From Candidatus Brocadia sp. (GTDB lineage: Bacteria; Planctomycetota; Brocadiia; Brocadiales; Brocadiaceae), in assembly GCA_021650915.1 (NCBI GenBank), contig CP091279.1:3900001-3932000 (forward strand): a stretch of DNA of 32,000 nt. The letters run 5' to 3'. A program made the position numbers and the translations under genes. How positions within the stretch are numbered: position 1 is the stretch's first letter; each line of letters begins with the position of its first letter. Positions 1,323 through 31,858 of the stretch are shown piece after piece. The notes under the pieces are model-generated. The model was given only the letters and a program-made list of their open reading frames with translations, ran no database searches and was not told the DNA's origin.

Positions 1323-1390
1323 GGTATAACAACCCTCCTTGTAAAATTTATGTTAAGGAATTTCAATCTTGTATCATAGCATACCAGACA

Positions 1391-1487: not shown

Positions 1488-1520
1488 GTTTATCATGGCA
1501 TTTGCTAGTATCGAAAAGTC

Positions 1521-1548: not shown

Positions 1549-1552
1549 CTAA

Positions 1553-1685
1553 TTTAATTGTATAGGAATTTTCATTTTATTTAAGCTGGTTTGCGGTAGG
1601 GTGGATTAAGCGAGAGCGAATCCACCTTTCCAGGAAATAGTTGTGGTGGATTCGGTGTAAAAACCAACGCCTTAATCCACCCTAC
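1553..1685 (+). repeat. REP-like structured intergenic repeat, copy A
   Basis: Near-identical to 8582-8727. They share tttaattgtataggaattttcattttatttaagc and then gcggtagggtggattaagcgagagcgaatccacc...ggtggattcggtgtaaaaaccaacgccttaatccaccctac. The outer arms GTAGGGTGGATTAAG / CTTAATCCACCCTAC and the inner arms GAATCCACC / GGTGGATTC are inverted repeats. Confidence 0.85.
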
Positions 1686-1782
1686 TCATAATTTGTCATT
1701 CATCATAAAAATCAATTCTAAAAAATCTTTTTCCATAGGGTGAATTGAACGTCAGCGAATCCACCAGAATGCCCTCATCGGC

Positions 1783-11433: not shown

Positions 11434-11687
11434 AGTCTTGTCTTAAAAACCGCCTTTGAAAATCACCCTGAACGATTCAAAGAAATTCCCCCTAAACCAT
11501 CAAGTGCGCCTGTGGCTGCTTGGATTAATAAACCAAAAACGGAATTTACTCTGTGATTAGAGTCTAAATTATTTTTTAAAGTGTCTAATTTCCATTGACA
11601 TATTCCGCTGCCTATCATCACAATGGCTTTGATGCGGGATAACGATACACTGGAGGACTTTTGTCTGATCTCTATTTAACAACGCTA

Positions 11688-13914: not shown

Positions 13915-15923
13915 CCCGACTTTCGCAATTCGAGGGGTATGCAACCCGCTAAGCCAGGGAAATCAAGGAGTCATGTAAAAAGGTCGGCACTACAGACCGA
14001 CCTGTCCGGATGCGTAAACCTTGGGCGGCGGTTGTTCAGGAAGCGTCAATCCCAACTGCGCCAAAAGGAGTAAAACGTCCTTCTCCGGCTGGGTATAACG
14101 GCTCATGACAATATGACAGCCATCCATGGTCGGTAAATGAACGTCTATCATTTGAATGCCCGACAGTTTTTCCAAAATCGCTTCAGACGTCAGCCCGCCG
14201 GCTCTCCCCCGCGCAAGATTGCGCAGCGTCGTGTGGAGACAAAAAGCCAAAAAGGAGACAAAGATATGGGCTTCAATTCTCCGTTCCAGTTGGTGCCATA
14301 GGGGACGGAGGGAAAGAGACCCCTTCAAGTCCTTAAATGCCTGTTCTATCCGCGTCAACAGCAAATAGTTTTCCCAGACGGTTTCTGGCGCGGTGGCCTG
14401 CATGTTGGAACGAAGCAAATAACGCCCCTCGCGCCGATACGCCTGCCTCAGGCGTTCCCGATCCAAACTGAACCGGAACGTATTCTCATTGACCGGTTCC
14501 TGCGGTTTGGGAATGGAGATCGTGACCAGTCTGTAGTCTCGTCCGGCTTCTTTCTTTAACGCGCCAATATGCATGAGCAGGTCATCGCGCGTGAGGGCTT
14601 TTCGATTGCGAAGTTCGCGCAGACCCATCCACAAACGTCTGAGTCTGCGCCTACGCATGGCACGCTCCTTAGACACCCGGTCATGGCTTTCCACGTAAAC
14701 GTAAAACTCCGATTCCTGCCGAAGAACTTTCACGCGGACGCTCTCCCTCGCCCGCATCCAGGTTTGTTCGAGCAGCGGTTTTTCTACTCTCGTCAAATGC
14801 CCCTTCGGAGTCCCAACCAAATAATCAATCCCGCGCTCACGCATCTTTTCCAACATCTCCTCCGTTGGAATACCGCGATCCATAAGCCAGGTGCGCCGGA
14901 ATTTCCCATACTGCTTTTCAATCCGATCCAGAAATTCCTCCAGCGTTGCGGTGTCTCTGGTATTGCCCGGATACACTTCGTAGGCCACGGGAAATCCTTC
15001 CGGCGTTAACACCAATGCCACTACCACCTGCACGCAATCCGAACGTTTGTCCCGGCTATATCCAAACCGTTTCTTACTCCCCGATCCAGTCGGAGGTGGG
15101 TCACTTTCAAAATACGTACTCGTCAAATCATACAGCAGTACATCGTACTTCGCCCCAAAGAGCTTGCCCCACTTCTCCTTTAAATAGGCAAACAGCTCGT
15201 CCCGATGCTCAAGCAACAAATCCAAACAACGATACGCCTTGTCCTTCTGCGCCAGGGAATAATCCTCTCCCAGCAGATCGCCTATTGCGCTCCGCACGTA
15301 CCACTCACGGTGAAAACGAAATTCGCTTCCCGGATCGATCAACCGGTAACAGACAAGCGCCTTCAGCATATTCAACCAGCTTGTCCCCTTCCGGCTTGAC
15401 GGCAGACGCATCCTCCAGAATGTGTCCAGTTCCAGCATATTCCATACATACAATCCCAACCAGCTTGCTCCCCACTCCCGTGGATGGCGCAGCTCTATTT
15501 TGTCCAACCTCACCCGAACGGTCTCACCATCCGGTATCGGCATGGCTTCCCGGTCGTCCGGGGAAACAACACCAGTTGTCTTGGCCTGGGTTCTTTACCC
15601 GACACCGCCTCTATCGTCCGAATCCACCCAGCCCGTTGATTGTCATTGGGTTCTCCCAAATAGAGAACCTGCCGCTGCACCACCCTTCTTCCGGTAACCC
15701 GGCGGTTCTCCACCACACTCCAATACCGGTGGGTTTTCCCATCCTTCGTTCGTGTCTTTTCCCGGAGAAACATGCGAGCATTTTCGCACTTCCTCCTGCA
15801 TGCGTCAAGAGGGTAGGTCGGCACTACAAGCCGTTTTGAAAATTCACCCCTTGAATATCACGGGTTTCCTGGCGACTCTTGCCCAAAAATAAACTTTTTT
15901 GGACGCGAATTGCGAAAGTCGGG
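13915..15923 (-). mobile_element. IS4/IS1634-type element bounded by perfect 18-bp inverted repeats
   Basis: cccgactttcgcaattcg (13915-13932) is the exact reverse complement of 15906-15923. The element interrupts IS630 copy 1. An internal 13-nt direct repeat, ggtcggcactaca, occurs at 13982-13994 and 15816-15828. Confidence 0.8.
13990..15773 (-). pseudogene. IS1634/IS4-family DDE transposase with one frameshift
   Basis: The N-terminal piece MFLREKTRTKDGKTHRYWSVVENRRVTGRRVVQRQVLYLGE... (ORF 15510-15824) continues as ...PDDREAMPIPDGETVRVRL in the 517-aa ORF 13990-15543. The frame changes at the G4/C4 run 15560-15563. Confidence 0.8.
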
Positions 15924-16852: not shown

Positions 16853-18567
16853 CCTAAATTCTGCAAATGATTTTCGCGTAGCGAAAATCGGCCTTCCATA
16901 ATACCTTTGCTATGCAAAAATCAGTGATAGACTTCAATATTTGACGGTTTGCGGAGTTACCCGGGGCGGCATGGCAGACGATAAGAATCTGGAAATAGCC
17001 CTGCCAAAACCATTCTGAGCAACAAAAACCGGGATGGAGACAGACCATCCTCCCCTGCTGCATTCTGAGCACCCAAAATATCTGGAGTCAAAGACAAGAA
17101 TTGCTTTCTAGCCGAACACCACACTCAGCGACATGCCTTCCCACGCCCGCCATTCTTCCTGATGAAGAAACTTCTCCGGTAACTTTAAGGTCAATTGCCT
17201 GCTGCCCTTTGTCAATTTCCCTGCAACACGAATCAACCACAACCGCATCGTCTTTACTTCCCACTGCTGCACCAATCCTCCGGTGAGCAGCGCCATCCAC
17301 TTCAAGAGGTTATACGCCAACACCGCACACTGAAATAACGCCGCATTTGCCAGAAACTCACCCGTGCGCAGATGACCCGCATTCATCTGACTCTTACACT
17401 CTTCTATCCACGTCTCGCAGGTCGCCCTCTTTCCATACGACCAATGCGCTTCTATCGGACCGAACCGCTCCGTCGTAACGTAGCAGAAATACTCATACAC
17501 CGGTATGGGAAACAACCCCCCTCTCTCGATTTTGATCAACTTCTTTACTGCCACAAATCGTCTTGCACGATTCCACTCACCGCACCGATACGTAAAATCT
17601 GCCTGCTCCCACCCTGCATGCCCTTCCACTGCCTCCCACTTCTGCCCTTCGAGCAACCCCACCAGATTCTTCAGCTTCACCTTGATAAGGTATCCCGCGG
17701 ATACCGACTCCAGGTAATCCAGCAACTCTCCCGAGAAAAAACCACTGTCTCCCCGAAAGATCACCCGTACCCGCTTCTTCGTATACGCCATACACTCCCT
17801 CATAAACTCTACAATCCCATTGCCCATGTATGCGCTCCCGCAGCGAAACCAACTATGCAATATCTCTTTCGTCTCTGCCACAAATGCTATCATGGGATGA
17901 TACGCCTTCTGTCCCTTCTTTTTGGGGTTATATCCCACTTCCGCACCCTGCTGATCCCCATAGACTCCGTCCACCGTTGAATCAACGTCTATCCACATAT
18001 CGCTCAGCGCACTTCTTAATGTATGCCCTGAACGCACCGCCCGTTTCCACACCTGTCCCCGGAATCGATGGATTATCCCCGTCAGTTCCACAATATCCCC
18101 CGGACTTACCAGCTTCATAATACGCCCTATCGTGCTATCGACGGGAATCTCTTTCCATCCCGGTATCTTCTTCAGTACCTCATCCGACCACACCTTCACT
18201 ACCTGCACCATCGAGGTCGCTCCCGCTATCAACCCCACGACGACCATTTGCACACCATCAACCATCTGATACCGTGCATTTGCCCCCCGCTCCTTACGTA
18301 CTGTCTCTTGCACTCTCTGTCTGAATAACAACTTCCCCATGAAAGTCAGTACCGGTAAGAGTCCTGCATGCACGGTTAATCCCTTCCCACTCATCTCCGT
18401 CTTGATTTTCGGTTGTCTTCTCTCCTCGTTTTGTGCTATAGTCTTCATGGAATTGGTGAACCTCCTTTTCGGTGTTTTTGTTCTTAAAATACCTTGAAAC
18501 CCCTGGAGATTCTATCATTTCTGACCTAACCCTGCAACAAGGCTTTGCCTTGTTTGCAGGATTTAGG
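16853..18567 (-). mobile_element. IS1380-family insertion sequence
   Basis: Terminal inverted repeats cctaaattctgcaaa (16853-16867) and tttgcaggatttagg (18553-18567) match at 14/15. TAA is present on both flanks (16850-52 and 18568-70). Confidence 0.8.
17108..18448 (-). CDS. IS1380-family DDE transposase
   Basis: 446-aa intact ORF with the characteristic GYNPKKKGQKAYHP motif, DVDSTV, and FRGDSGFF. Confidence 0.85.
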   Translation of the reverse strand: MKTIAQNEERRQPKIKTEMSGKGLTVHAGLLPVLTFMGKLLFRQRVQETVRKERGANARYQMVDGVQMVVVGLIAGATSMVQVVKVWSDEVLKKIPGWKEIPVDSTIGRIMKLVSPGDIVELTGIIHRFRGQVWKRAVRSGHTLRSALSDMWIDVDSTVDGVYGDQQGAEVGYNPKKKGQKAYHPMIAFVAETKEILHSWFRCGSAYMGNGIVEFMRECMAYTKKRVRVIFRGDSGFFSGELLDYLESVSAGYLIKVKLKNLVGLLEGQKWEAVEGHAGWEQADFTYRCGEWNRARRFVAVKKLIKIERGGLFPIPVYEYFCYVTTERFGPIEAHWSYGKRATCETWIEECKSQMNAGHLRTGEFLANAALFQCAVLAYNLLKWMALLTGGLVQQWEVKTMRLWLIRVAGKLTKGSRQLTLKLPEKFLHQEEWRAWEGMSLSVVFG

Positions 18568-18795: not shown

Positions 18796-18851
18796 GATTC
18801 CGAAATATCTGTAAAAAGCAGGAAATAAAGTGATATCTAGAATTATTTCTA

Positions 18852-18892
18852 TTTTACCTAATTGGTTGTTCTTTTCCAAAAATTAGGTAAAA
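18852..18892. promoter_or_regulatory. Perfect 12-bp AT-rich inverted repeat upstream of ORF 18924 (operator or terminator candidate)
   Basis: ttttacctaatt (18852-18863) and aattaggtaaaa (18881-18892), separated by a 17-nt spacer. Confidence 0.3.
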
Positions 18893-18923
18893 ACTAAAAT
18901 AGCAGTATATCAAACTTATAGAA

Positions 18924-20132
18924 ATGTACCTCAGTGAAAAAGACATTCAACGGCTGAAAAGTTTCCGACCAGGAATACGGACAAACAAAGTACTCTATTA
19001 CCTTTTAGAAACTAAGGTTCTTGGTTATTGGTCTTTCCTCGAACCAAAGCACAAAGGTATCGAACTTGCTGACATCCTTGTTTGGTGGGAGGATGTTGTT
19101 CTGCTGCTTGAGGCAAAAACCAGAGAAAAGCCCGAAAAGGCAAGTGAGGCTTGGATCAGAACGCAATTAAATGAGGCAGTTGTCCAAGTAAATGAAAAGG
19201 CAAAAATGCTTAGGAATGGGGGAGTTGCAGAGTTACGCAACAAGTGGCGCGGAGTAGTGAAATGGGACCCTGGCGTTGTTAAGCATTATTACAGTATTAT
19301 TGTGTTGAATTGCTTCTCTGATTCCTGCGACCCGCGCGAAATTGCCACCGAAGCGTTCAAAGCATCGGACATACCGATACAAGTGTTTTCTCTATTTGAT
19401 TTGGCGGAGCTTCTCAGGTTTATCAACACGATCTGGGATTTCATTATCTACTATGAGCTTCGGGAGATGTACAGTCGTCGGTATAAGGTTTCTCTCCATG
19501 AGGAATTCCAAACCTATCAAGGCATTCTAAGCTGTTGGGAAGAACTTTCACCTAAAGATGCACAGCAAGAACAAGATTTTCAGGTAGCGATATCGAATGC
19601 AATTCTCAGGTCGAAACTTGCTGACGAAAAGGGATATTCTTTGCTTGCTGCCAGCTATCTTCTTGATCTGGCTATAGGTTCTCTTGAAAGGCGAGCTGAC
19701 TCTGATAAAACAGGAAAGATAGTTGGTAGTCCAAAGCACGAGCAATTTGTAAGTTCTATTGGTGCTATCGCAGAGTTGAGCCGCCATCGAAGAAGTGGTT
19801 ATGGGAAGAAATGGGTTGAGGCAGCAAAACAATCGGCGGAAAACGGTAAGAGCTGTTACAAATTCTGCTACAGTCCAAGTAGAAGACGAAGTTATATTTT
19901 ATGTTCATTTGAAACCAAAGAATATTCACGAGATATTATTATGATTAAGCTAACACAGGAGCATATGAAAGAATATAAAACTACAAGTTGCCTTTGTCTA
20001 GCTGCCACTACAAATACTATACTCTCCACGTATGAAATGTTTTTGTCTTGGACCAAAGGCAAGGGGAGTTCCGAACCACCAGATATAGAGATTCTTGATA
20101 CCTTAGTGCTTTTTACAGAGAAGAGCTTGTAA
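18924..20132 (+). CDS. Uncharacterised protein with an N-terminal NERD-like PD-(D/E)xK nuclease motif
   Basis: 402 aa. The motif IELAD(50)ILVWWEDVVLLLE(63)AK(65)T fits the D-x(n)-ExK core. The remaining approx. 300 aa have no recognisable motif. Confidence 0.65.
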   Translation: MYLSEKDIQRLKSFRPGIRTNKVLYYLLETKVLGYWSFLEPKHKGIELADILVWWEDVVLLLEAKTREKPEKASEAWIRTQLNEAVVQVNEKAKMLRNGGVAELRNKWRGVVKWDPGVVKHYYSIIVLNCFSDSCDPREIATEAFKASDIPIQVFSLFDLAELLRFINTIWDFIIYYELREMYSRRYKVSLHEEFQTYQGILSCWEELSPKDAQQEQDFQVAISNAILRSKLADEKGYSLLAASYLLDLAIGSLERRADSDKTGKIVGSPKHEQFVSSIGAIAELSRHRRSGYGKKWVEAAKQSAENGKSCYKFCYSPSRRRSYILCSFETKEYSRDIIMIKLTQEHMKEYKTTSCLCLAATTNTILSTYEMFLSWTKGKGSSEPPDIEILDTLVLFTEKSL

Positions 20133-20281
20133 AACATGTAAGGTTGGGTTTTGCTTAACCCGGTATACTTAACTGATCATTGACAATTAATAGAGGGTTC
20201 CGGGCACGACGACACCGTGCGGAGCAGGGAATTCCTTGCAGAAAAACTTATCGGCCTATATGGCGAAAAGGAGTTACTGTT

Positions 20282-20431
20282 ATGGTAAAATACGTATTTA
20301 ATAAGTTGAAATCTTTTCTTCCTGTTGCCCTAGTCATTTTTGGCTGGATTGCATTTACATTCGGCATAGTTATCAATGGACATTTTTGTTTGAAGCTTGT
20401 GTTGCTGTCAGTTGCTAGGGCCCTGCCCTAA
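20282..20431 (+). CDS. Small hydrophobic (membrane) peptide, 49 aa
   Basis: ATG preceded by AAGGAG at an 8-nt spacing. Reads MVKYVFNKLKSFLPVALVIFGWIAFTFGIVINGHFCLKLVLLSVARALP, with one clear TM segment. The track's longer 20180 start is less plausible. Confidence 0.35.
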   Translation: MVKYVFNKLKSFLPVALVIFGWIAFTFGIVINGHFCLKLVLLSVARALP

Positions 20432-20464
20432 ATCCTCCGTTGCGAAATACAGCTAAATAAGAAT

Positions 20465-20492
20465 AAGGTTGGGCTGAGCGCAACCCAACCTT
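20465..20492. terminator. GGTTGGG...CCCAACC palindrome (hairpin) after the small ORF
   Basis: aaggttggg-ctgagcgcaa-cccaacctt, with a perfect 9-bp stem. Confidence 0.45.
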
Positions 20493-20527
20493 ACTTAACC
20501 GCAAGTTGAATAGGAAAATACACGATA

Positions 20528-21147
20528 ATGAATAGAATAGATAATCTTCTGTTTTTTAAAAGTAATCTTGATGACACACTCAGAAATCAGTCTGGCCAGA
20601 TAGCCGCCGAAGTTGATTCGATTCCGAAGGATCAACTACTCGCAACGCCTGAAGACGATATTGTTGATCACATTTATTCATCAATCAAGATCGAGCCTAT
20701 TGTTTTGCATGAAGATTCAAAAGAGATGGAACAGCACGAGACTAAAATAGATGTAAGCGGATATCGAGAACAATATGTCTCCGTAGATCGAGGCCCAATT
20801 TATGTTCCTGGTGTAAAGGTTGTTGTAAGCATCCCGTATACAGGGAATCCTTCTCTCTGGAATCTCAAACCCAATCGCAGCCAGTCAGTATTTCCCCGAT
20901 CCGATATTCGGCAACCCAACAGAGATGGGATTGGTTATCTTGATATTGTAATCGAACTGCCGGTAGATGAACAACGCGAAAAATTCAGACAACGTTTAGA
21001 CGACGAACTTAAGAGCATCAGGTTTTACCTTGACTCCCAAAAATCGCAGGTAGAGATGTTTAACTCAACTGCTCCCAAAAACATACTGATAGCTATACAA
21101 GCCAGAAAAGAACGTCTAAAGACCCAAGATGGTATCGCAGATTTATT
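20528..21147 (+). pseudogene. Uncharacterised defence-island protein, N-terminal part (interrupted by IS66)
   Basis: The ORF is open to the IS66 boundary, and the stop codon comes from the IS terminus (ttg taa). It continues in frame at 22875. Confidence 0.8.
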
Positions 21148-22866
21148 GTAACTATTCAGCGAAAATATTTTAGAATTTAGTTGACAGTCAACATGAGAAA
21201 AGGGGGCCGTAGAATTGGTTGGTAGAATAAATGGCTGTGGAGGATGCCACTGTAGCCCATCGGAGGTTTTTGCAAAGAGAGGTGTGGGGTATGTTCGGCC
21301 AGAGAATTACAGAGTTTTGTAGGGCGGTAGAGGGTGAAAAAAATGGGTGAAAAAGCCTGTGGTATAATAGCCGCAGGAGATGATTTCAGGCTATTAATAC
21401 CGGTGCCATCCATTGACGATAGAGAATATAGATATAGATGCAACGCTGCGGAAAGTAGAAAAGCTGCTTTCAGAGGAAAAAGGTCTGTCACCTGCCATAA
21501 GGTCAATGATAGAGTTGTTGGTGTTAGTGATAACGCTGCTGGTAGGACGTCTGAACCGGAACAGTCGCAACAGTAGTAAGCCGCCCGCAAGCGATCCGAA
21601 TCGCACGAGAAAGAGCAGGGCGAAAGGAGAGAGGAAGGCAGGTGGGCAAGAGGGTCATGATGGAGTAACGCTGAAAAAGGTAGCCAATCCTGATAAGGTG
21701 GAAGTAATAAAAGTAGACCGGAGGAAGTATCCGAGCGGCAAATACAGGTTGATCGGTTATGAGTCGCGTCAGGTGTTTGATATGAAGATTTCAAGGGTGG
21801 TAACGGAGTATCGGGCAGAGATAGTTGAGGATGCGGAGGGAAGTAGGTTTGTAGCGTCATTTCCGGAAGGGGTGACAAAGGCAGTGCAGTATGGGCCGGA
21901 TTTGAAAGCGCACGCAGTATATATGTCACAGTATCAATTGATACCCTATAAGAGGATCCAGGAGTATTTTGAGGAGCAGATGGGGATACCGCTGAGCGAA
22001 GGCTCTCTTTACAACTTTAACAAGGATGCCTACGAATCTCTGGAAGCCTTCGAGGGGAAAACCAAGGAAGAACTTGTCAAATCAGAGGTATTGCAGGCAG
22101 ATGAAACGAGCATCAACAAGAACGGAGACAGGTATTGGCTGCATAGTGCATCCAATAGTTTGTGGACACACTTTTTCCCTCACGAAAGACGTGGGACGGA
22201 AGCGATGGATAGTATCGGGATACTGCCCCAGTTTCGGGGGATTCTTTGTCACGACCATTTGAAGGCGTATTACACCTACACCCGCTGTACACATGCGCTC
22301 TGTAATGCACACCACCTGAGGGAATTGGAGGGGGTGTGGGAAGAGGATAAGAAGCAACCGTGGGCGAAAGAGATGAAAGCCCTGCTCGAAGAGATAAACC
22401 GTGCGGTAAAGGATGCGGGGGGTTTGTTGGAAAACGGCGAGTCTGAGAAATACCGGCAAAGGTACCGGGGGATATTACAAAACGCAGAAGCTGAAAGCCC
22501 GCCCCCTGATGAAACGAACCGTAAGGGGAAAAGAGGGCGGGTAAAAAGGACAAAAGCACGGAATCTCCTGGAACGATTACGGGAGTATGAGGGTGATGTG
22601 CTCAGATTTATGGACAATAAAAACGTCCCCTTCACGAATAACCTGGCCGAAAACGATATCAGGATGACGAAGGTTCAGCAGAAGATATCGGGCTGTTTTC
22701 GTTCTCTGGACGGAGCGAAGATCTTCTGCCTCATCCGTAGTTATCTCTCGACTTGTCGAAAACAAGGGGTAAATTTAAGTCAGGCATTACGGATGGTATT
22801 TCGCGGCAAATTGCCTGATTTTGCCAGCTCGTAACGATAGGGGGCGATATTACGCTGAATAGTTAC
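21148..22866 (+). mobile_element. IS66-family insertion sequence, single-ORF (ISBst12-like) type
   Basis: Perfect 14-bp terminal inverted repeats gtaactattcagcg / cgctgaatagttac. A perfect 8-bp target duplication gatttatt is present at 21140-21147 and 22867-22874. Confidence 0.92.
21413..22834 (+). CDS. IS66-family transposase
   Basis: 473 aa with NSRNSSKPPASDPN, GGQEGHDG, LQADETSINKNG, LCHDHLKAY, HALCNAHHLREL, PFTNNLAENDIRMTKVQQKISGCFRS. Confidence 0.9.
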   Translation: MTIENIDIDATLRKVEKLLSEEKGLSPAIRSMIELLVLVITLLVGRLNRNSRNSSKPPASDPNRTRKSRAKGERKAGGQEGHDGVTLKKVANPDKVEVIKVDRRKYPSGKYRLIGYESRQVFDMKISRVVTEYRAEIVEDAEGSRFVASFPEGVTKAVQYGPDLKAHAVYMSQYQLIPYKRIQEYFEEQMGIPLSEGSLYNFNKDAYESLEAFEGKTKEELVKSEVLQADETSINKNGDRYWLHSASNSLWTHFFPHERRGTEAMDSIGILPQFRGILCHDHLKAYYTYTRCTHALCNAHHLRELEGVWEEDKKQPWAKEMKALLEEINRAVKDAGGLLENGESEKYRQRYRGILQNAEAESPPPDETNRKGKRGRVKRTKARNLLERLREYEGDVLRFMDNKNVPFTNNLAENDIRMTKVQQKISGCFRSLDGAKIFCLIRSYLSTCRKQGVNLSQALRMVFRGKLPDFASS

Positions 22867-23511
22867 GATTTATTAGGCATACCCTTAAAAAGACGTGGAG
22901 ATGCACCTCCAATAGAACCTATCCAGATAAAGAGAAAACTAATCAAACCGCTTCCACCTCCTCCAAAGTCTGGGTACAAATCAGAACCCGGTATTACCGA
23001 TCAAGATTTCGAGCATATTCTTGCTGTAATACGGCACGAGGGAAGGAGCTTCGAAGCTACGCCAAAAACATACGCTGTTCACAATGAGGAAGAACTTAGA
23101 GATATTCTAATAGCACATCTGAATGGACATTACGAAGGTGGAGCCACAGGCGAAACTTTTAGAAGAAGTGGAAAAACGGATATTCGGATTGAAGATCAAG
23201 AAAGAGCGGCCTTTGTCGCTGAATGTAAAGTCTGGCGGGGGAACAAAGAACTTTTGGAAGCGGTTGATCAGTTGCTTAGCTACCTTACATGGAGAGATTG
23301 CAAAGCAGCCATTGTCGTCTTCAATAAACACAACGCAAAATTCACCGAATTGCTGACAAAGATGCCTGAAACTATGCGTTCTCATCCAAAATTCAAGAAA
23401 GAACTTGGGCAACAGAAAGAAGGGGAATGGAGGTTTATCCTGACCTCACTCGAAGATGAGCTAAGGCAAGTCATTGTTAACGTGTTTGTCTTCAATCTAT
23501 TCTTTGCCTAA
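22867..23511 (+). pseudogene. Uncharacterised defence-island protein, C-terminal part with a PD-(D/E)xK-like motif
   Basis: The frame is open from the TSD copy: DLLGIPLKRRGDAPP...PLPPPPKSG...ATGETFRRSGKTD(23179)IRIEDQERAAFVAE(23221)CK(23227)VWRG...LSYLTWRD. Only the last 85 codons appear in the track, because there is no earlier start codon. Confidence 0.8.
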
Positions 23512-23530
23512 CAGGAAACTCCAGGATGTT

Positions 23531-23575
23531 GGTTGGGTTTGTTTGCTATACCTAACCTACGTTATTTTTTGTTTT
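23531..23575 (+). terminator. Hairpin plus T-run after the split nuclease gene
   Basis: ggttgggt...acctaacc (one mismatch), followed by tacgttattttttgttttg. Confidence 0.45.
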
Positions 23576-23656
23576 GATTACAAAATTATTTCTGTATAGT
23601 GGATCACTAGAAGCATTACGTAATACTGCATACTATTCTGAAGAAGGCATAACCGA

Positions 23657-25084
23657 ATGTTAACTCTGTCCGAGAACGTTAAAGTCTTACCACAAAAGAT
23701 AGCTTTAAGTGCAGTTGAACACCTTGATCAAAAGTTATATTATCACTTCAAGGACAAATTTCACCTTGATGTTTCTTTATCCCGTTCACTTGTGAGCTTT
23801 CAAGCCAATAAGACCAGAGAAATTTACCGCTGGTATAAATTCAAAGAAGCATTCTCCGCTTCATTAGTCGAACATCTGCTTGAAAAGTACAAGATCGTTA
23901 GCGGCTTAATTCTTGACCCATTTGCCGGCAGTGGAACAGCCTTGTTTGCGGCTATTGCAGAAGGGATAAACGCCGGCGGAATTGAATTGTTACCGATTGG
24001 CCAACAAATAATCAACACGAAAAAAATACTCGCGCTAGAGTTCACGAAAAATGATTTTGCTATTCTCAGGCGGTGGTCGCTCGAACAACCCTGGAGAAAA
24101 TCTGAGTTGCGAATGCCACTAAACGAGTTGCGTATTACGAAAGATGCATATCCAGAACAAACGAAGGAATCAATCGAAAGATACTTAGGCACATGCGAGC
24201 AAGAAAATGAACGCATTCGGGCAGTTTTGCGATTTGCTTTACTGTGTATTTTAGAGTCGGTGAGCTATACACGCAAAGACGGTCAATATCTGCGTTGGGA
24301 TTACCGGTCTGGCAGGCGACAGGGTAAAAAGCCTTTCAATAAAGGAACTATTCCCAGTTTTGAAAATGCTATTTGCAACAAAATAGATGAGATCGTTTTC
24401 GACTTGCATACCAGGGGAAAACAAAAACCACTTTTTACCTCAAAGCATTCAAAAGGTACAATTAATCTCTATGGTGGCTCGTGTCTTGATGTGTTGCCAA
24501 CTATCCCCACTGGTACTTATGATGCTATTATTACTTCACCACCATACTGCAATCGGTATGATTACACACGCACGTATGCTTTAGAACTTGCCTTACAAGG
24601 GATAAGCGAACAAGAACTATTACATCTACGCCAACAAATGCTTAGTTGCACAGTTGAAAATCGCGCCAAGGACTTATTAAAGATGAATCCACCATGGAGA
24701 AAGGCTATTGCTGCCGCTGATCACCAAGAATTGTTACAGTCCATCTTGAAATATTTAGACGATCAAAAGGCGCAAGGTATGCTAAATAACAATGGTATTC
24801 CCAGAATGGTTCGGGGCTATTTTTACGAGATGGCTTGTGTAATCGCCGAATGCTCAAGAGTAATGAAACCAAATGCTCCGTTATTCATGGTGAATGATAA
24901 CGTCCGATTTGCGGGAGCAAGTATTTCTGCGGACATGATACTTTCCCATATTGCGGAGAAGTTAGGATTTTATGTAGAAAACATTCTCGTATTACCTAAA
25001 GGTAAAGGAAATAGTAGTCAACAGATGGGTAAGCACGGACGTGAATTACTTCGAAAGTGTGTTTATGTTTGGAGAAAAACCTAA
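23657..25084 (+). CDS. DNA amino-methyltransferase (N6-adenine or N4-cytosine), motif order I then IV
   Basis: 475 aa. AdoMet motif I is [14 protein letters not shown] (approx. aa 87-100). Catalytic motif IV is [11 protein letters not shown] (approx. aa 292-302). About 190 aa lie between them as the presumed target-recognition region. Confidence 0.88.
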
Positions 25085-26052
25085 TGAGTAGGCCGAGCCT
25101 ACCGCGTTTAAAGTCGAGCAAAGACCTTGAAACCACGTATGAAGCTGTTCGTGCTGGCTTCGTTAAACAGGCGTTAGAAAAAAACAGGCAGGCTACTCAG
25201 TATGTTGAAGAAGCAAGGGCGTTAAAAGTTGCCGCTTCAACCGCTAAAACACCAAGCGATTTGCTCATCATTCCAGACATCCAATCAGCCCTGTTGACTG
25301 CCGCTGGTGTATCCGAGAAGGCAAACAATCATTTATTGCAGCGAGATAAGGAAGAAGCGATAAAAGGGCTTATCGATAATTTTCTTGAACCAGCAGGGAA
25401 AAAGTTTGTAGAAGAATTGGTTTTCAGATTTTTATTGATACGCGGGGATACTCTCGGCGGTTCAATGCGGAATATCGGTGGAATCCTAGCCCAACGGAAG
25501 TTAACGCGCTCTATTATTTCTGCACTCAAGGTTGCTGGTAAATCTTATGAGTGGCTTCATTCAGAAACAAATGCATGGGTGCCAATGACAGAGAGTAATG
25601 CAGAAATAGAGATATTTGTAAAAGGTATCAGTTGGAAAAGCGACAGCCAGAGTCGGACAGCACTTTTTAATTTGTTCGTACCAATCGTTGGTAACAATGT
25701 GGATTTGTGTTTGTTTAATCGTGAATCAAAAGATTTTTCCAATAAGAAAATTGCCAGAGATATACTTATTTCTCCGCCTTCGTATATTGCCCTTGGAGAA
25801 CTAAAGGGTGGAATAGATCCTGCAGGTGCGGATGAACACTGGAAAACTGCCAGAACACATCTTAATCGCATTCAAGACTCATTCAAGAAGATGGGACATA
25901 AACCAAATCTTTTCTTTATTGGGGCGGCTATTGAAGCAAAAATGGCAGTTGAAATATGGAATCTGCTCAAGAAAGGTATACTTTCAAATGCTGCAAACTT
26001 AACTGACGATAACCAAATAGCATCTGTATCACGTTGGTTATGTAATCTATAA
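25084..26052 (+). CDS. Putative type II restriction endonuclease cognate to the upstream methyltransferase
   Basis: 322 aa from the ATG that overlaps the MTase stop (TAATG). A PD-(D/E)xK-like signature is present: NNVDLCLF ... [19 protein letters not shown]. Confidence 0.6.
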
Positions 26053-26333: not shown

Positions 26334-27426
26334 TAGTTCGTTGCATTGATTATGTTAAATAATTCTCAAAGAATTTCTTGGTCAATTCAGGGTTCTTCTG
26401 TATTTTTCTAAGCGCTCCAATGACTAAACGTCCAAGTTGTTTTTTGTCCTGTGCCTGGTGATTCTTTAGCGTGACATGCTTCATATGCCGCCAAACTTTT
26501 TCATCCGGATTCAGATCCGGTGAATACGGCGGCAGATGGAATACGCGTAGCTTCGATGACCCCTCATTCAATGCTTTAATTCTTTTGGCAACATGGCAAG
26601 GCGCTTGGTCCATGATCACCGCCACCTTACGCCGCGGATGTTGCACGCTAATTTGATTCAGAAATTCCATAAGAACCTGGGCGTTAACTTTTCGTTTCTC
26701 CAGACGGAAACACATCCTGCCAGATGGCGAAATCGCCGACATGGCCAAAACGCCGCCCGTTTCCCGGTCACACGCACAACGGGGGTTTCTCCTATCGGAG
26801 CCCATGTTTTTCCAATAACAGGCGCAAGGGAAACGCCCGACTCATCCTCAAAATAGATAATAGCCCGGTTTTTCTGAGCCCACTTCTGAATTTCAGGCCA
26901 CTCCTTGCTAATCCATGTCTTTACCAAATCCATGTCTTGCTGTGAATAACGTTTTTCCGGCTTTTGAAAACTCAAACCCAACCGAACCAGATATCGCCAT
27001 ATTGTGCTGCGATCCAAATTCACTTTTCGTTCTCGCCGGAAAAGAATTCTAACATATGTTCCGGTCCACAGCGGAGTCGAAAAACCATATTTTGTCGCGA
27101 CATTCTGCAAAACACTTTGCAACCATCTTAAATCATCCGCATTTACAATTCGCGCCTTGCCCTTTGCTTTGCGTTCCTTAAGCGCCTCTATACCACCACG
27201 ACGGTATTGAGAGAACCACCTTGAGACACTTTCATACTTAATGCCAAATATCTCGCCTATTTCTTTAACGGAATAATGCATCTTATCCCTGAGCGTGATC
27301 GCCCGGATTCGATAAGACTCCAATACCTCCCTTGACAGCTTCCTTCCGTCATCTTTCATGCTCCTATTTTACAACATTTTATCTAGCAATGAAACTAATT
27401 ATTAACTTAATTAATGCAACAATCTA
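26334..27426 (-). mobile_element. IS630-family insertion sequence (copy 3)
   Basis: Approx. 31-bp imperfect terminal inverted repeats: tagttcgttgcattgattatgttaaataatt versus the reverse complement tagattgttgcattaattaagttaataatt. TA is present on both flanks (26332-33 and 27427-28). It is inserted into another IS630 fragment. Confidence 0.85.
26350..27359 (-). pseudogene. IS630-family transposase with a single frameshift
   Basis: The 233-aa ORF (...GKTWAPIGETPVVRVTGKR) continues in the -1 frame as GGVLAMSAISPSGRMCF...MDQAPCH...LPPYSPDLNPDEKVW. The shift lies at 26756-26759. Confidence 0.85.
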
Positions 27427-27742: not shown

Positions 27743-27844
27743 TATACACTACAAAGCGGGATTACAAGGAGTATAAATAGATAGGGGCAAATTAAGCATA
27801 AAGGCATATTGGCAAAGCGTCATGTAGTGTATACGATATGCACT

Positions 27845-29341
27845 ATGAGCTTTATACGGAGGATAAAACGAGGAGCCTCAATTTACCTAGCCGAGGTAGA
27901 AAATGTAAGAGTAGGCGGCAAGGTTATCCAGAAGCATATCCGGTATGTGGGTAAAGAAGTAGCTGATACACCGATTTTAACAGGGTCGGTGGCGAATTCC
28001 ACGATAGATCGGGTGACAATCTATGGTCCCTTATTGATGTTAGACGAGATCGCAAGACAAATTGATTTATCTGGTATATTGGGGGAATATGGGGACTATT
28101 TGTTGAGCTTGGCCTATGCTCATTGCATTTCGCCAGATAGTTTAACGGGGATGGCAGATTGGTATCAGAAGACCGAGATGGGTAGTCTTCTTTCTCTTTC
28201 CGATGTTACGTACAAGAAATTGATCGAGGCAATCGATTCGGTAGAGGGGATGAAAGGGGCGGAGATTCAAGGGCAAATATTTGGACGTTTAAAAGAGAGT
28301 TTAAATCTATCGGCGAAAGGGTATTTTTACGATATTACGAGCATCTATTTTTACGGGGTATGTTGTCCTCTGGCCAAGCGCGGGCATAATGCGGAGGGGA
28401 GGAAGGAACGGCAAATTCAGGTTGGATTAGCGGTAACGCAGGGGGAAAGGATTCCAATATTTCACAAAGTATTTGAGGGAAACATCTTTGATGCGAGGAC
28501 ACTGCCGGACATTCTTCTTCATCTTAGAGGTCAGCATATCAAGGACATCTGTATTGTATGGGACCGAGGAGTTTCTTCTCAATTGAACATCAAAGAAGCC
28601 AAAGAGATGGGATTTGAAGTGTTATGTGGGCTAGCGTTGAAAGGAGATTTAAAGAAGGTTGCCGATCACGTTCTGGGGGAGGATATCATCTCCATGAAGC
28701 AGAGAGTAAGACTTCAGAATGCCACCTTCTATGTGAAGAAGAAACGGTACCGGATAGACGGGATTGATGGATATCTTGCCGTTTGTCTTAACGAGAAAGA
28801 AAAGCAGGCGATTCGCGAGAGGAGATATGACGAGATTGATCATGCCCTCCAACAGATCGGTCAGAACAAGGATATCCGCGAGGGGCTGAAGAAATATATA
28901 AGCGGGAATAAGGCCAATTACAAGTCTTTGACATTGGCAGGGCGCTATGACGGAATATCGGTAATCTTCTCGGCGAGGAATCTCAGTGAAAAAGATATGA
29001 TCAGGGGGTATTTTGAAAAAGATACCGTAGAGAAATCCTTCCGATGTATGAAAAGCCTTTTAGAAATGGACAAGGTAAGGTTCTGGCTAACTAATCGAGT
29101 CAAGGGACATATTTTTGTTTGCTATCTCGCCTATTTACTTCTCTCTGTCCTTGAATACAGACTTAAGAAAATAGGAATAAAGGCAACTGAGGCAATAGAA
29201 ACCATGGAGTCGATGTGTCGAGTGTACATCACCGATCCAAAATCAAAAAACAGATTCGTAAAAACAGTAACTCTGAGTAAAAAACAAGAAGACATCCTAA
29301 GGGAAATTAATCCGCATCTCTTGACAAAGTGTAATGTGTAA
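27845..29341 (+). CDS. IS1634/IS4-family DDE transposase (second, unrelated copy); element ends not defined
   Basis: Intact ORF. Reads MSFIRRIKRGASIYLAEVENVRVGGKVIQKHIRYVGK, YFYDITSIYFYG, IVWDRGVSS, and a C-terminal YLAYLLLSVLEYRLKK. The track's TTG start at 27809 is less likely. Confidence 0.8.
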   Translation: MSFIRRIKRGASIYLAEVENVRVGGKVIQKHIRYVGKEVADTPILTGSVANSTIDRVTIYGPLLMLDEIARQIDLSGILGEYGDYLLSLAYAHCISPDSLTGMADWYQKTEMGSLLSLSDVTYKKLIEAIDSVEGMKGAEIQGQIFGRLKESLNLSAKGYFYDITSIYFYGVCCPLAKRGHNAEGRKERQIQVGLAVTQGERIPIFHKVFEGNIFDARTLPDILLHLRGQHIKDICIVWDRGVSSQLNIKEAKEMGFEVLCGLALKGDLKKVADHVLGEDIISMKQRVRLQNATFYVKKKRYRIDGIDGYLAVCLNEKEKQAIRERRYDEIDHALQQIGQNKDIREGLKKYISGNKANYKSLTLAGRYDGISVIFSARNLSEKDMIRGYFEKDTVEKSFRCMKSLLEMDKVRFWLTNRVKGHIFVCYLAYLLLSVLEYRLKKIGIKATEAIETMESMCRVYITDPKSKNRFVKTVTLSKKQEDILREINPHLLTKCNV

Positions 29342-29557: not shown

Positions 29558-30457
29558 ATGACCTTTCAGGAAATTATCTTAAAACTGCAAAATTACTGGG
29601 CTGATTACGGCTGTGTACTCTGGCAACCCTATGATATGGAAAAGGGCGCCGGCACGTTTAATCCTGCAACATTCCTGAGGGCGCTGGGTCCTGAACCGTG
29701 GAAATGCGCTTATGTAGAACCCTCACGGCGTCCAACTGATGGCAGATACGGAGAAAATCCCAACCGATTACAACATTACTATCAATTCCAGGTAATCATA
29801 AAACCCGCCCCTGATGATGCGCAGGATATTTATTTAAACAGCTTGCGGTTTTTAGGCATTGATCTGGTGAAACACGATGTGCGGTTTGTCGAAGATGACT
29901 GGGAATCCCCTACCCTGGGCGCTACGGGACTTGGCTGGGAGGTATGGCTGGACGGCATGGAGGTTACGCAGTTTACCTATTTTCAACAGGTAGGCGGTTT
30001 TGAACTTGAACCAATCACCCTTGAGCTTACTTACGGACTCGAACGCATCGCCATGTTCATCCAGGAAAAAGAATCGGTATTCGATCTTGAATGGGTCAAG
30101 GGCTACACTTACGGCGATATCCACAAGCAGGACGAAGTCCAGTTTTCCACCTATAATTTTAAAGTTGCAGACACGACCATGCTTTTCCAGCTCTTTGATG
30201 CATACGAAAAGGAATGCCAGCGACTGCTCAAAGAAGACCTGGTGTTGCCCGCCTATGATTACGTTTTAAAGTGCTCACACACGTTTAATCTGTTGGATGC
30301 CCGCGGGGCTATCGGAGTCACCCAGCGTACTGGTTATATCGGAAGGGTAAGAAACCTCGCCCGACGCTGTGCCGAAAGTTACGTCCAGTTGCGCGAGACG
30401 CTGCATTGGCCGCTACTAAAGGAATTCAAGGCGAAAAAATATGAATACGCGGAATAA
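29558..30457 (+). CDS. glyQ: Glycine--tRNA ligase alpha subunit
   Basis: 299 aa. Reads [48 protein letters not shown]...[27 protein letters not shown], the canonical GlyQ sequence pattern. Confidence 0.95.
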
Positions 30458-30919: not shown

Positions 30920-31858
30920 TTGAACGTAGAAAATTTGGGTGGTATTCGTCCTTCTGTTGATGCAAACAAGAATCTTAACCATCTTGTTATATTAACTACA
31001 ACAGAGCAGTATGCGAAAAACATAGCAGAAAATCCTTACCATGACAGGATCGAAAACAACATACTAATTTACACGGCGCAAGGAAGAACTGGCGATCAAG
31101 AAATCAGCGGTAGGAACAAAAGGATTATTGAACAATACTCTGCGCCAATTCCTTTTTATGGCTTTTCAAACGAAGGAAGACAAAAATATACATTTCCTGG
31201 ATTGCTTGAGCTTCTTCGCCATTTCCAAGAATATCAGATAGACAAAAAGAATATCTTAAGAAAGGTTTGGGTTTTCGAATTTTACATTCATGACGAAATA
31301 CCAACAGTTCCTATCCAAAATGCAAAAGACTTAATTGTTGCAATATTTAAGGAATCAAGAAAAATCCGCGAAATAGAGAGAGAAGAAAGAGAAGTCATTT
31401 TATCTGAAGTTCAACAAAAAGTTTATGAAACTGCAAATTGTGAAACAGAAGAAATTCGTTCTTATCTTCTTCGTATTAATCCGTATCGTTTTGAATTTCT
31501 TGTAAAAGATGTAGTTGCGTCGAATGGTTTTATAAATGTTACCGTGACGACTCCTTCACAAGATGGAGGGATTGATGTAAATGGATATGTTGCAGAATCT
31601 AATTACTTTTTCTCTAGGACGCATGTTCAATTCCAGGTAAAACGTTGGCGTCATTCTGTGGGCAGTGTCGAAATTAACAATTTCAGAGGTGCGCTGCACA
31701 CAACCGCAAAAGGGATATTTGTGACTACAAGCCACTTTACGAAGGCTGCAATGCAAGAGGCAGAACATTCTGTCAAACCTTGCATTTCACTTATCGATGG
31801 ATTTAGGTTTTCAAAACTCATAAAAGACACTGGAATAAACATAAACAAATATCTGTGA
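30920..31858 (+). CDS. Type IV (modification-dependent) restriction enzyme: SRA-like N-domain + Mrr-cat nuclease domain; native N-terminus is cut off by an amber codon
   Basis: The C-terminal domain is Mrr-like: FEFLVKDVV..GFINVTVTTPSQDGGIDVNGY...VQFQVKRW...FRGAL...GIFVTTSHFTKAA...ISLIDG. The N-terminal domain follows an SRA-type pattern: GGIRPS..LVILTTT..Y.D....ILIYTAQGRTGDQEISGRNKRII. An in-frame ATG at 30863 is followed by TAG at 30905-07. Confidence 0.75.
   Translation: MNVENLGGIRPSVDANKNLNHLVILTTTEQYAKNIAENPYHDRIENNILIYTAQGRTGDQEISGRNKRIIEQYSAPIPFYGFSNEGRQKYTFPGLLELLRHFQEYQIDKKNILRKVWVFEFYIHDEIPTVPIQNAKDLIVAIFKESRKIREIEREEREVILSEVQQKVYETANCETEEIRSYLLRINPYRFEFLVKDVVASNGFINVTVTTPSQDGGIDVNGYVAESNYFFSRTHVQFQVKRWRHSVGSVEINNFRGALHTTAKGIFVTTSHFTKAAMQEAEHSVKPCISLIDGFRFSKLIKDTGININKYL

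Follow-up and report, generated by a model that had tools for sequence, protein, structure and literature searches.

An insertion sequence (IS) of the IS66 family has knocked out one gene of the PDC-S54 family in Candidatus Brocadia fulgida, and the intact product of this gene was probably a stand-alone anti-phage effector that targets DNA. The gene lies in two pieces on the forward strand of the window, the 32,000-nucleotide stretch of DNA analysed here. Its 5' half (20528-21147) comprises codons 1 to 206 and two nucleotides of codon 207 and encodes the whole N-domain, while the 3' half (22875-23511) consists of the last base of codon 207, residues 208 to 418 and the stop codon, and encodes a linker (residues 208-247) and a predicted RecB-type PD-(D/E)xK domain (residues ~249-418). 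Deletion of positions 21148-22874 in silico restores an open reading frame (ORF) of 1,257 nt (1,254 nt plus the stop codon) for a protein of 418 amino acids, with the junction ...DGIADLL|GIPLKRRGDAPP..., and the in-frame reconstruction put forward in the initial annotation, which was made from the sequence alone, is thereby borne out. The N-half currently yields a product of 207 amino acids (20528-21151), whose stop codon is contributed by the end of the IS (TTG|TAA), and which public genomes annotate as hypothetical (BROFUL_02719 / L3J18_17515). The 3' half is annotated publicly as an 85-aa remnant (L3J18_17525). The earliest in-frame start codon of the C-half, a TTG at 23254 (residue 333), is situated downstream of the catalytic residues, and the nuclease can thus not be made. 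The insertion separates L207 from G208, where the long helix formed by residues 150-207 gives way to the linker. It had originally been placed inside the PLPPPPKSG stretch, which is located 25 residues further downstream.

The inserted element (21148-22866, forward strand) is 1,719 bp in length and is bounded by perfect 14-bp terminal inverted repeats (IRs). The left repeat (21148-21161; GTAACTATTCAGCG) has its exact reverse complement in the right repeat (22853-22866; 14/14 positions complementary), with identity dropping to noise beyond base 14. Perfect 8-bp target site duplications (TSDs) of GATTTATT flank the element at 21140-21147 and 22867-22874, and the span, the repeats and the duplication all reproduce the coordinates first proposed. 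The chance of a 14-bp IR and an 8-bp direct repeat at these fixed positions is ~6e-14. A transposase of 473 amino acids (21413-22834, forward strand), incorporating DUF6444 and DDE_Tnp_IS66 domains, is encoded within the element (PF03050, 6.4e-49 over 282/284 profile positions; PF20042, 2.9e-09; NCBIfam NF033517 transpos_IS66, 2.4e-91, 306.7 bits against a cutoff of 180). The TnpC-type DDE transposase, together with the 8-bp TSD and the terminal IRs, upholds the assignment to the IS66 family. Canonical IS66 elements (~2.5 kb) carry the accessory genes tnpA and tnpB, whereas both are absent from the Brocadia element, whose 1,719 bp include 265 bp ahead of the transposase ORF and no further long ORF in the sense direction. 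On the basis of this length and gene content it is placed in the single-ORF subgroup, outside the canonical IS66 elements. Shared with this group are the IS66-type DDE transposase as the sole long ORF, the 8-bp TSD, terminal IRs starting with GTAA, a size of ~1.7 kb and multiple copies in the host; in ISfinder terms, the group is that of the ISBst12-like elements. Near-identical copies (99.94% over 1,719 bp) were found on three further contigs (L061, L062 and L050), as expected for an active, multi-copy element, with L061 carrying the same IS at a different locus and L062 being a stand-alone contig of 1,719 bp, both in other assemblies. The window itself holds one copy. Short-read contigs end ~23 bp inside the IS, and in L050, an old JGI contig, the right IS end is followed by unrelated sequence. 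The limits of the element are confirmed independently by the copies in L061 and L062, by the uninterrupted orthologue in L001 and by the recurrence of the truncated product in at least nineteen contigs.

Comparison of the repaired protein with the PADLOC models identified it as a member of PDC-S54 (PDLC05036; E = 1.4e-130, 434.5 bits), with residues 1-415 matching positions 1-406 of the 410-position profile. PDC systems are by definition genes that lie within BREX, DISARM or type I restriction-modification (R-M) loci, and PDC-S54 is one of 145 PADLOC candidates, listed as untested (Payne et al., 'guilt-by-embedding', bioRxiv 10.1101/2024.01.29.577857). The Brocadia gene shares with this entry the full-length HMM match, the organisation as a single-gene unit and the existence of relatives between hsdS and hsdR, which is the arrangement for which PDCs were nominated. 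It differs from the nomination context in being insertionally inactivated and in adjoining a type II (BsoBI-type) rather than a type I R-M system. The PADLOC entry consists of a name, without activity, domain description or mechanism on record. A literature search did not find PDC-S54 named in the main text of any paper, and it is not among the PDCs assayed in a cold-seep study. The description of the protein as 'uncharacterised' in the initial annotation therefore holds as regards experiment, but not as regards classification, the family having already been catalogued as a candidate.

Homology searches retrieved 2,972 homologues, and the family comprises 3,862 clusters at 50% identity (E <= 1e-3), nearly all of them 400-430 aa in length and with one matched stretch. 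The relatives are, with few exceptions, single ORFs of ~418 aa, and the two halves thus correspond to one gene, as had been proposed. The distribution of the family is patchy across unrelated phyla and includes 24 plasmids and two phage-like records, with no conservation of synteny. No relatives of the repaired protein were found in Pfam, NCBIfam or among PDB sequences. Profile searches of the latter returned a short match to the MEF2 MADS-box (segment DCKAALIIFNK), which was rejected as a chance match. When 70 homologues were scanned individually against Pfam, isolated weak matches to PDDEXK_9 (0.012), DUF234 (0.0015) and pPIWI_RE_REase (0.05) were observed, which would fit the PD-(D/E)xK clan but do not by themselves count as evidence. 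The same nuclease domain also occurs behind different N-termini in other lineages (L042, L045, L043, P0250, P0268 and P0226), and these alternative N-termini have no Pfam identity.

In the structural models, the protein consists of an alpha/beta N-domain of ~207 residues (three helices, a four-stranded sheet and a helix of 58 residues, 150-207), a conserved, basic and proline-rich linker of ~40 residues (208-247) modelled as disordered, and a C-domain. The AF2 model of the C-domain (pLDDT 92.1, pTM 0.89) has an alpha-beta-beta-beta-alpha-beta core, formed by helix 278-293, strands 297-302, 310-314 and 318-326, helix 330-343 and strand 350-357. D309 is modelled just before beta2, E323 and K325 on beta3, and Q339 and Y343 in helix 330-343, so that both the core fold and the D...(D/E)-x-K arrangement on beta2/beta3 that define PD-(D/E)xK enzymes are present. 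The codons of these residues are found in a motif block at 23152-23283 on the forward strand (E300 at 23152, D309 at 23179, E323 at 23221, K325 at 23227, Q339 at 23269 and Y343 at 23281), the D, E and K codons being those already singled out from the sequence. Across an alignment of 70 sequences (A2; 30-92% identity), D309 and E323 are each conserved in 69/70, E300, K325 and Q339 in 70/70, and Y343 is invariant; the predicted D/E/K triad is thus retained down to 30% identity. The nucleases of the RecB family display four motifs, including a QxxxY in the helix following motif III (PMC2475608), and the invariant Q339-xxx-Y343 within helix 330-343 places the domain in this subgroup. Foldseek comparison of the C-domain model against the PDB returned PD-(D/E)xK nucleases for all six best matches, among them NucS (2vld, E = 3.3e-3), EcoO109I, an EndoMS-DNA complex (5gke, probability 0.98), MspJI (rank 5) and McrC (rank 6). 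None of these matches reached E <= 1e-3, with TM values of 0.28-0.36 over ~105 residues, and as the fold matches are weak the assignment rests on the motif, on the topology and on the agreement among the top matches, all of the same superfamily. Taken together, the C-domain is predicted to be a PD-(D/E)xK nuclease with the RecB-type motifs E300, D309, E323-x-K325 and Q339-xxx-Y343. Nuclease matches were obtained once the C-domain was modelled by itself, whereas the N-domain has no structural match in the PDB or BFVD using Foldseek and no recognisable relative. A search with the whole protein against the PDB gave spurious long alignments only (acetyl-CoA carboxylase central domain and pol beta), and the viral folds in BFVD gave nothing credible, the single match at E = 6e-4 having an rmsd of 19.9 Å.

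Several known nuclease systems resemble the PDC-S54 protein in part. With NucS/EndoMS (2vld, 5gke) it shares the RecB-type PD-(D/E)xK core, the D, ExK and QxxxY motifs and the placement of a separate domain ahead of the nuclease. The similarity is weak (E = 3e-3 to 1e-2, TM ~0.3, ~105 aligned residues, 17-21% identity) and is restricted to the nuclease core, and neither the repaired protein nor the 70 members matched the Pfam NucS family, with no sequence match in the PDB. Unlike in NucS/EndoMS, the N-domain is much larger, unrelated and followed by a long linker, and the gene resides in mobile defence islands rather than being a conserved repair gene. Shedu (SduA, DUF4263) is a single-gene defence nuclease with a C-terminal PD-(D/E)xK domain, variable N-terminal domains and a location in defence islands. 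PDC-S54 is similar in outline, comprising one polypeptide with a C-terminal PD-(D/E)xK domain, exchangeable N-termini and residence in defence islands, but differs in having no sequence relationship and in its family-specific proline/lysine-rich linker and 58-residue helix. PADLOC, which includes Shedu models, gave only PDC-S54 at E <= 0.1, and DUF4263 was matched by 0/70 members. The same four-motif arrangement, including QxxxY after motif III, is likewise found in the nuclease domain of HsdR and in RecB-family nucleases. In contrast to HsdR, PDC-S54 lacks a helicase/translocase module and is a stand-alone domain behind a novel N-domain, often encoded beside HsdR and not as part of it.

In the window, the split gene heads a BsoBI-type methyltransferase/endonuclease pair within a transposase-crowded island. 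The next gene downstream (23657-25084, forward strand) encodes a type II DNA methyltransferase of the N6_N4_Mtase family (PF01555, 1.2e-12; PADLOC MTase_II, 3.5e-159), which carries the UniRef name cytosine-N4-specific methyltransferase and is colinear in the related contig L001. It is followed by a BsoBI-family type II restriction endonuclease (25057-26052, forward strand; PF09194, 1.7e-146; PADLOC REase_II, 9.8e-121). Upstream, a segment of 1.69 kb (18815-20500, forward strand) that is absent from the L001 lineage forms part of the context rather than of the split gene; it contains a strong hairpin (20462-20495) and a 402-aa ORF (18924-20132) to which Pfam, PADLOC and NCBIfam gave no match. 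Kinship of the nuclease domain with this ORF was considered and rejected, and scans for promoters and terminators around the gene gave no useful excess over the shuffled background. Elsewhere in the family, the operon order hsdM-hsdS-[PDC-S54]-hsdR occurs at three loci (L017, L019 and L023), and a fourth (L030) has the order hsdM-hsdS-[PDC-S54]-HNH-SAVED-CD-NTase, the latter genes belonging to CBASS. HsdM/HsdS account for 12/111 nearest neighbours against 3/91 genes located more than 7 kb away (p = 0.036, for non-independent genes), a weak test given that the distant control genes derive from the same islands. Further neighbours include PIN, Fic, GmrSD_C, RelE/HigA and ParD genes, and some homologues adjoin housekeeping genes.

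The joining of the nuclease module to unrelated N-termini in other lineages, and the repeated occurrence of the gene in type I R-M operons, beside CBASS and toxin-antitoxin genes and on plasmids, suggest that the intact protein probably served as a stand-alone anti-phage effector acting on DNA. The N-domain and long helix may mediate oligomerisation and either sensing or autoinhibition, and the nuclease, once released, would cut DNA. From the 58-residue helix, at least a dimer would be predicted. Since the N-domain lacks a structural match, the sensing or autoinhibitory role is pure conjecture. In the Brocadia gene, the IS landed at the helix/linker junction and duplicated GATTTATT, leaving an N-domain stub of 207 aa. 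A bolder proposal, which we hold with rather less conviction, is that PDC-S54 constitutes a mechanistically distinct single-protein immune system, in which a new N-terminal fold with a long coiled-coil helix and a basic, strongly conserved polyproline linker restrains a RecB-type nuclease until infection. The copies embedded between hsdS and hsdR might then act much as PrrC does, as a back-up triggered by inhibition of the surrounding type I R-M system, and the B. fulgida allele would represent a natural N-domain-only truncation.

An unlikely alternative, yet the strongest of those considered, is a modification-dependent (type IV) restriction enzyme with Mrr/MspJI architecture, in which the N-domain would read modified bases and the C-terminal PD-(D/E)xK domain would cut. 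Its inactivation in B. fulgida could, in that case, ease conflict with resident methyltransferases. MspJI and McrC are among the top fold matches, and a single gene adjoining R-M genes with an N-terminal reader and a C-terminal nuclease would suit this layout. One homologue has the automatic UniProt name 'Restriction endonuclease type IV Mrr domain-containing protein', but the relationship to Mrr implied by this name was rejected, as Mrr_cat was matched by 0/70 members at E <= 0.05 and hhalign against the Mrr_cat protein encoded in the window itself gave a probability of 0.1%. Nor does the N-domain match an SRA-like or other reader fold, the best structural match is NucS and the QxxxY motif is of the RecB type, and L001 carries the intact orthologue alongside the same methyltransferase. 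It is less probable still that the protein serves mobile elements as a selfish toxin for addiction or stabilisation, a nuclease that makes it costly to lose the element or the flanking R-M system and that has no direct anti-phage role. Carriage on plasmids, embedding within R-M operons and the frequency of PIN, Fic, RelE/HigA and ParD toxin-antitoxin genes among the neighbours would fit such a toxin, but no small antitoxin-like partner gene is conserved across loci and the gene persists as a chromosomal singleton. The boundary between abortive-infection toxins and defence genes is blurred, and this explanation thus partly overlaps with that of an anti-phage effector.

There is little to recommend a housekeeping nuclease for DNA repair or recombination, analogous to NucS/EndoMS, in place of an immune gene. 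NucS likewise has a DNA-binding domain at its N-terminus and a RecB-like nuclease at its C-terminus, no structures match better than NucS/EndoMS (E = 3.3e-3, probability 0.91-0.98) and some homologues are found among housekeeping genes. Against this stand the patchy occurrence across unrelated phyla, on plasmids and on phage-like records without conserved synteny, the embedding in type I R-M operons and adjacency to CBASS, and the fact that a loss allele disrupted by an IS is the sole one in sampled B. fulgida. The protein is furthermore longer than the matched NucS chain (418 vs 228 aa) and differs in its N-domain, and Pfam NucS was matched by no members. Finally, that the halves are naturally separate genes or the product of misassembly, as the public annotation of two hypothetical proteins and the aberrant junction in L050 might imply, is already refuted by the thousands of single-ORF homologues, the perfect TSD and IRs, the existence of an empty site, the recurrence of the same junction in at least nineteen contigs of independent runs, with the truncated product on a contig of 4.05 Mb, and the lack of a start codon in the C-half.

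The empty site, for which relatives had been proposed as the place to look, is that of L001, a contig of a related Brocadia-like lineage, in which the orthologue is uninterrupted and a single GATTTATT occurs at the junction; aligned with the window, L001 gives two BLAST segments that overlap by exactly these 8 bp. The truncated product of 207 aa was identified in at least nineteen contigs from many independent runs, and the disrupted allele is the sole allele found for B. fulgida, being present in every sampled assembly over many datasets. An exact (100% identical) intact allele was not found among ~15 billion proteins. Comparison with the intact orthologue revealed neither stops nor frameshifts in the split gene, and dN/dS is 0.19 overall and 0.10 for the C-half. 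On the scale of sequence decay the insertion is young, with no other lesions and IS copies that are ~99.9% identical. The claim of a recent inactivation is thus upheld by the intact state of the reading frame and the low dN/dS, but 'recent' applies in a relative sense only, given that sampled B. fulgida has yielded no allele other than the disrupted one and that the exact intact counterpart is absent from the proteins searched. Transposase genes from at least six IS elements occur in the window, and the insertion into the PDC-S54 gene may therefore have no selective meaning. The event is real but fairly ordinary, and amounts to the routine erosion of a genome in an anammox bacterium rich in IS elements.

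For the family, which spans at least 3,800 clusters at 50% identity, is mobile and occurs in many phyla without a Pfam or NCBIfam model or a solved relative, the analysis provides a falsifiable description: a predicted RecB-type D/ExK/QxxxY nuclease joined through a conserved linker to a novel N-domain, with the residues for mutation named. Intact orthologues for cloning, among them P0001 (92% identical), and cultivable carriers (such as Marinobacter albus M216 and a Thauera plasmid) have also been identified. For Brocadia, it means that one element of a defence island, situated beside a BsoBI-type R-M system, is dead in every sampled population, which bears on phage pressure in anammox reactors.

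The IS66-family element occupies 1,719 bp (21148-22866), and reading of the sequence, together with in-silico excision, bore out its ends, perfect inverted repeats and 8-bp target site duplication as described in the initial annotation. The last 14 bases repeat the first 14, GTAACTATTCAGCG, exactly in reverse complement; the similarity goes no further, and GATTTATT is present on both sides (21140-21147 and 22867-22874). The 473-aa transposase (21413-22834) is matched by DDE_Tnp_IS66 (6.4e-49) and DUF6444 in Pfam, and by transpos_IS66 in NCBIfam (2.4e-91, well over the cutoff). While canonical IS66 elements comprise three genes, this element carries one gene in 1.7 kb, which places it in the family's single-ORF branch. 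Deletion of 21148-22874 from the split gene (20528-23511) yields a 1,257-nt ORF (418 codons and a stop) reading ...KTQDGIADLL|GIPLKRRGDAPP..., so that DGIADLL is fused to GIPLKRRGDAPP as proposed, and the codons of the D, E and K residues begin at 23179, 23221 and 23227, as initially read. The insertion does not lie within PLPPPPKSG, as initially placed: it falls between L207, the final residue of a long helix, and G208, at the domain/linker boundary and 25 residues before that motif.

A relative with the unoccupied site was found in a related Brocadia-like contig (L001; Logan SRR25730292), which encodes an uninterrupted orthologue (P0001; 92 % amino acid identity); as in the window, the methyltransferase and the BsoBI-type endonuclease come next. 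Positions 58-704 of this contig align with 20501-21147 and 697-3883 with 22867-26052, and the overlap of the two segments is exactly 8 bp, a single GATTTATT at the junction, making this a textbook empty site. Furthermore, a shortened 207-aa product, diagnostic of the junction since the IS end forms its stop codon, occurs on at least nineteen contigs assembled from many sequencing runs; each of these stops approximately 23 bp inside the element, as expected of a multi-copy repeat in short-read assemblies. Real transposition is thus independently confirmed. By exact sequence matches, the DNA comes from Candidatus Brocadia fulgida, a planctomycete of the anammox group. The stub (BROFUL_02719/L3J18_17515) and the 85-aa C-terminal remnant (L3J18_17525) are both publicly labelled 'hypothetical'.

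Other copies of the element were observed elsewhere. In another Brocadia assembly a 1,719-bp copy, 99.94 % identical and with an identical transposase, lies at a different chromosomal site (L061, 1236-2954), where the flanks AAATTCTT and TATGTGCG contain no matching 8-bp direct repeat, a sign of recombination among IS copies or of a MAG misjoin there. In a third assembly the IS alone forms a 1,719-bp contig with both ends exactly at the inverted repeats. In a contig of an older JGI anammox metagenome (L050), the 55 bp following the right IS end (2415-2469) match 11553-11607, just beyond an IS3-type element in the window, and stand where the C-half of the split gene would be; this junction reflects either a chimeric assembly joining IS copies, or else a further IS copy or a rearrangement within that population.

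A word-indexed search returned 2,972 homologues of the repaired protein, the best 120 of which (407-453 aa) cover 97-100 % of the query. When 1.84 billion cluster representatives were searched exhaustively, this gave 3,862 clusters at E <= 1e-3 (1,257 at E <= 1e-30), nearly all of 400-430 aa and aligned in one matched stretch. The homologues being single ORFs, the two halves are one gene. The rival readings, of halves that are genes in their own right or of an artefact of assembly, are refuted. The repaired protein has no match in Pfam, NCBIfam or the PDB sequences, and aligns end to end with PDC-S54 of PADLOC-DB (E = 1.4e-130). The family is thus already catalogued as one of the 145 phage defence candidates, none tested, which were picked as genes embedded in BREX, DISARM or type I restriction-modification systems (bioRxiv 10.1101/2024.01.29.577857). 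A literature search found no mention of PDC-S54 in the main text of any paper, and it is absent from the candidates assayed in a cold-seep study.

The proposed D-x(n)-E-x-K motif of the C-domain is conserved in an alignment of seventy sequences with 30-92 % identity (D309 and E323 each in 69/70, K325 in 70/70), in which E267, E278, R282, E300, Q339, Y343 and W346 are invariant. When modelled alone with a diverse alignment (pLDDT 92.1, pTM 0.89), the C-domain is predicted to have a core of a helix (278-293), three strands (297-302, 310-314 and 318-326), a helix (330-343) and a further strand (350-357), with D309 just ahead of the second strand, E323 and K325 on the third, and Q339 and Y343 in the following helix. 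Foldseek comparison of the C-domain against the PDB returned nothing at E <= 1e-3; the six best matches are all PD-(D/E)xK nucleases, including NucS (2vld; 3.3e-3), EcoO109I, DNA-bound EndoMS (5gke; probability 0.98), MspJI and McrC. A QxxxY signature in the helix directly after motif III has been described as typical of nucleases in the RecB family (PMC2475608). On the basis of the conservation, model, top folds and QxxxY signature, the D-E-K proposal is accepted, and refined to a predicted RecB-type PD-(D/E)xK domain. An Mrr identity, as in the UniProt automatic name 'Mrr domain' of one homologue, was rejected: none of seventy family members matches Mrr_cat at E <= 0.05, and hhalign with the window's own Mrr protein gave a probability of 0.1 %. 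Repeated PDB-sequence profile matches of residues 347-399 to the MEF2 MADS-box (E ~2e-3 to 1e-2), via DCKAALIIFNK...F, were judged a short compositional coincidence rather than homology.

The full-length AF2 model (pLDDT 79) comprises a confident N-domain of three helices, a four-stranded sheet and a 58-residue helix (150-207), a low-confidence linker (~208-247) and the C-domain. The linker (residues 208-247; 22876-22995) is predicted to be disordered, with pLDDT below 50 at 220-242, yet a pattern of IPL, a basic run, AP, PI, a second basic run, PLP and EPGI is kept down to 30 % identity (I209 in 58, P210 in 62, P218 in 62, P234 in 53, E244 in 53 and I247 in 55 of the seventy sequences). Conserved 'disordered' segments usually mark binding or docking elements, and this conservation suggests that the linker may be an interaction segment. 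The N-termini are modular, with at least three unrelated N-terminal regions, none recognised by Pfam, preceding the nuclease domain in other lineages, mostly Flavobacteriia (L042, 9341-10528; L045, 9311-10495; also L043, 9659-10552, and proteins P0250, P0268 and P0226). In P0226, a Cys-rich extension of ~100 aa is present at the C-terminus as well.

In the disrupted allele, the first start codon of the C-half frame past the upstream stop is a TTG at 23254 (residue 333). Since this lies 3' of D309, E323 and K325, and no ORF listed for 20300-23700 reads from the IS into the C-half, the nuclease is not made, while a 207-aa stub holding the complete N-domain could still be produced. Once repaired, the sequence is free of stops and frameshifts. 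Relative to the L001 orthologue it has a dN/dS of 0.19 (N-half 0.32, C-half 0.10), close to that of the adjacent restriction-modification genes (0.12), and the IS copies are ~99.9 % identical; these features indicate an insertion which, measured by sequence decay, is young. The initial term recent needs qualification on two points: the exact intact allele was absent from ~15 billion proteins searched, the nearest intact proteins being 94.5 % identical, and the disrupted allele occurs in many independent runs and several different assemblies. It appears to be fixed in the sampled B. fulgida.

In the window, the split gene heads a BsoBI-type methyltransferase/endonuclease pair in an island (~10-29 kb) where at least six IS elements are represented by transposase genes. 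Besides that of the IS66 element, at least five such genes are crowded into the ~19 kb around it (10067-11433, 13990-15543, 17108-18448, 26658-27359 and 27809-29341), and include IS3-type HTH and rve, DDE_Tnp_1 types and an IS630-like HTH/DDE_3 fragment. The housekeeping genes SelB (1783-3816) and GlyQ (29558-30457) bracket the region, and a genuine Mrr_cat restriction gene is located at 30920-31858. At the left window edge, adjoining SelB, a 200-aa minus-strand ORF (720-1322) with RVT_3/RNase H-like domains (1.5e-20) has no relation to the split gene. Directly 5' of the split gene, a 1.69-kb segment (18815-20500), missing from the otherwise colinear L001 lineage, contains a 402-aa ORF (18924-20132) and closes with a hairpin (20462-20495; 15-bp stem); its appearance is that of a cassette indel within the defence island. 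Pfam, PADLOC and NCBIfam give no match to the 402-aa ORF; on visual inspection, its D...E-A-K stretch ELADILVWWEDVVLLLEAKTRE could be a PD-(D/E)xK/NERD-like motif, and kinship with the PDC-S54 nuclease domain was ruled out by hhalign. Between 20528-26052 and L001 85-3883, dS is uneven (PDC-S54 gene 0.19, methyltransferase 0.54, endonuclease 0.63), which suggests recombination or separate histories of adjacent island genes. The insertion of an IS in a defence-island gene of this IS-rich genome is an ordinary event.

The distribution of the family is that of mobile and defence-island genes. Three loci (L017, L019 and L023) have the order hsdM-hsdS-[PDC-S54]-hsdR, and a fourth (L030) hsdM-hsdS-[PDC-S54]-HNH-SAVED-CD-NTase, the latter two a CBASS pair. 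HsdM/HsdS account for 12/111 of the two nearest ORFs per side in thirty-one loci against 3/91 ORFs more than 7 kb off (p = 0.036), a weak difference in view of the pairing of the genes and of controls drawn from the same islands. Further neighbours encode PIN, Fic, ParD and GmrSD_C proteins. Members occur on twenty-four plasmids of Proteobacteria, Actinobacteria, Cyanobacteria, Planctomycetes, Spiroplasma, Deinococcus and one haloarchaeon, and in two phage-like records, always annotated as 'hypothetical protein'. On Thauera pTX1 the gene is 3' of a RelE/HigA toxin-antitoxin pair, with a type I specificity-subunit gene further out on one side, and TPR, IS5 transposase and restriction endonuclease genes on the other; on a Nostoc plasmid, NACHT, ATPase and ParA genes lie on one side and a PIN-domain gene on the other. 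The human-gut Caudoviricetes phage NatCom_35866 (PV036449.1) encodes a full-length homologue (L064, 1437-2705; 33 % identity, 93 % coverage) near one genome end, adjoining transposase fragments and a DNA invertase, and the family thus also travels on phage-like elements.

The intact protein would be a stand-alone, DNA-targeting immune effector, in which the N-domain and helix may control the RecB-type nuclease by oligomerising and by sensing or autoinhibition. Among the rival readings, an enzyme of type IV-like kind that depends on modification is a plausible sub-variant, and an addiction-type toxin would overlap with abortive-infection defence. A NucS-like role in repair is unlikely, as the distribution of the family speaks against it. 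The initial observation is confirmed and its interpretation essentially right. The interest rests with the family, which is huge, without a Pfam or NCBIfam model and experimentally untouched, and for which there is now a specific nuclease model, together with a set of residues for testing.
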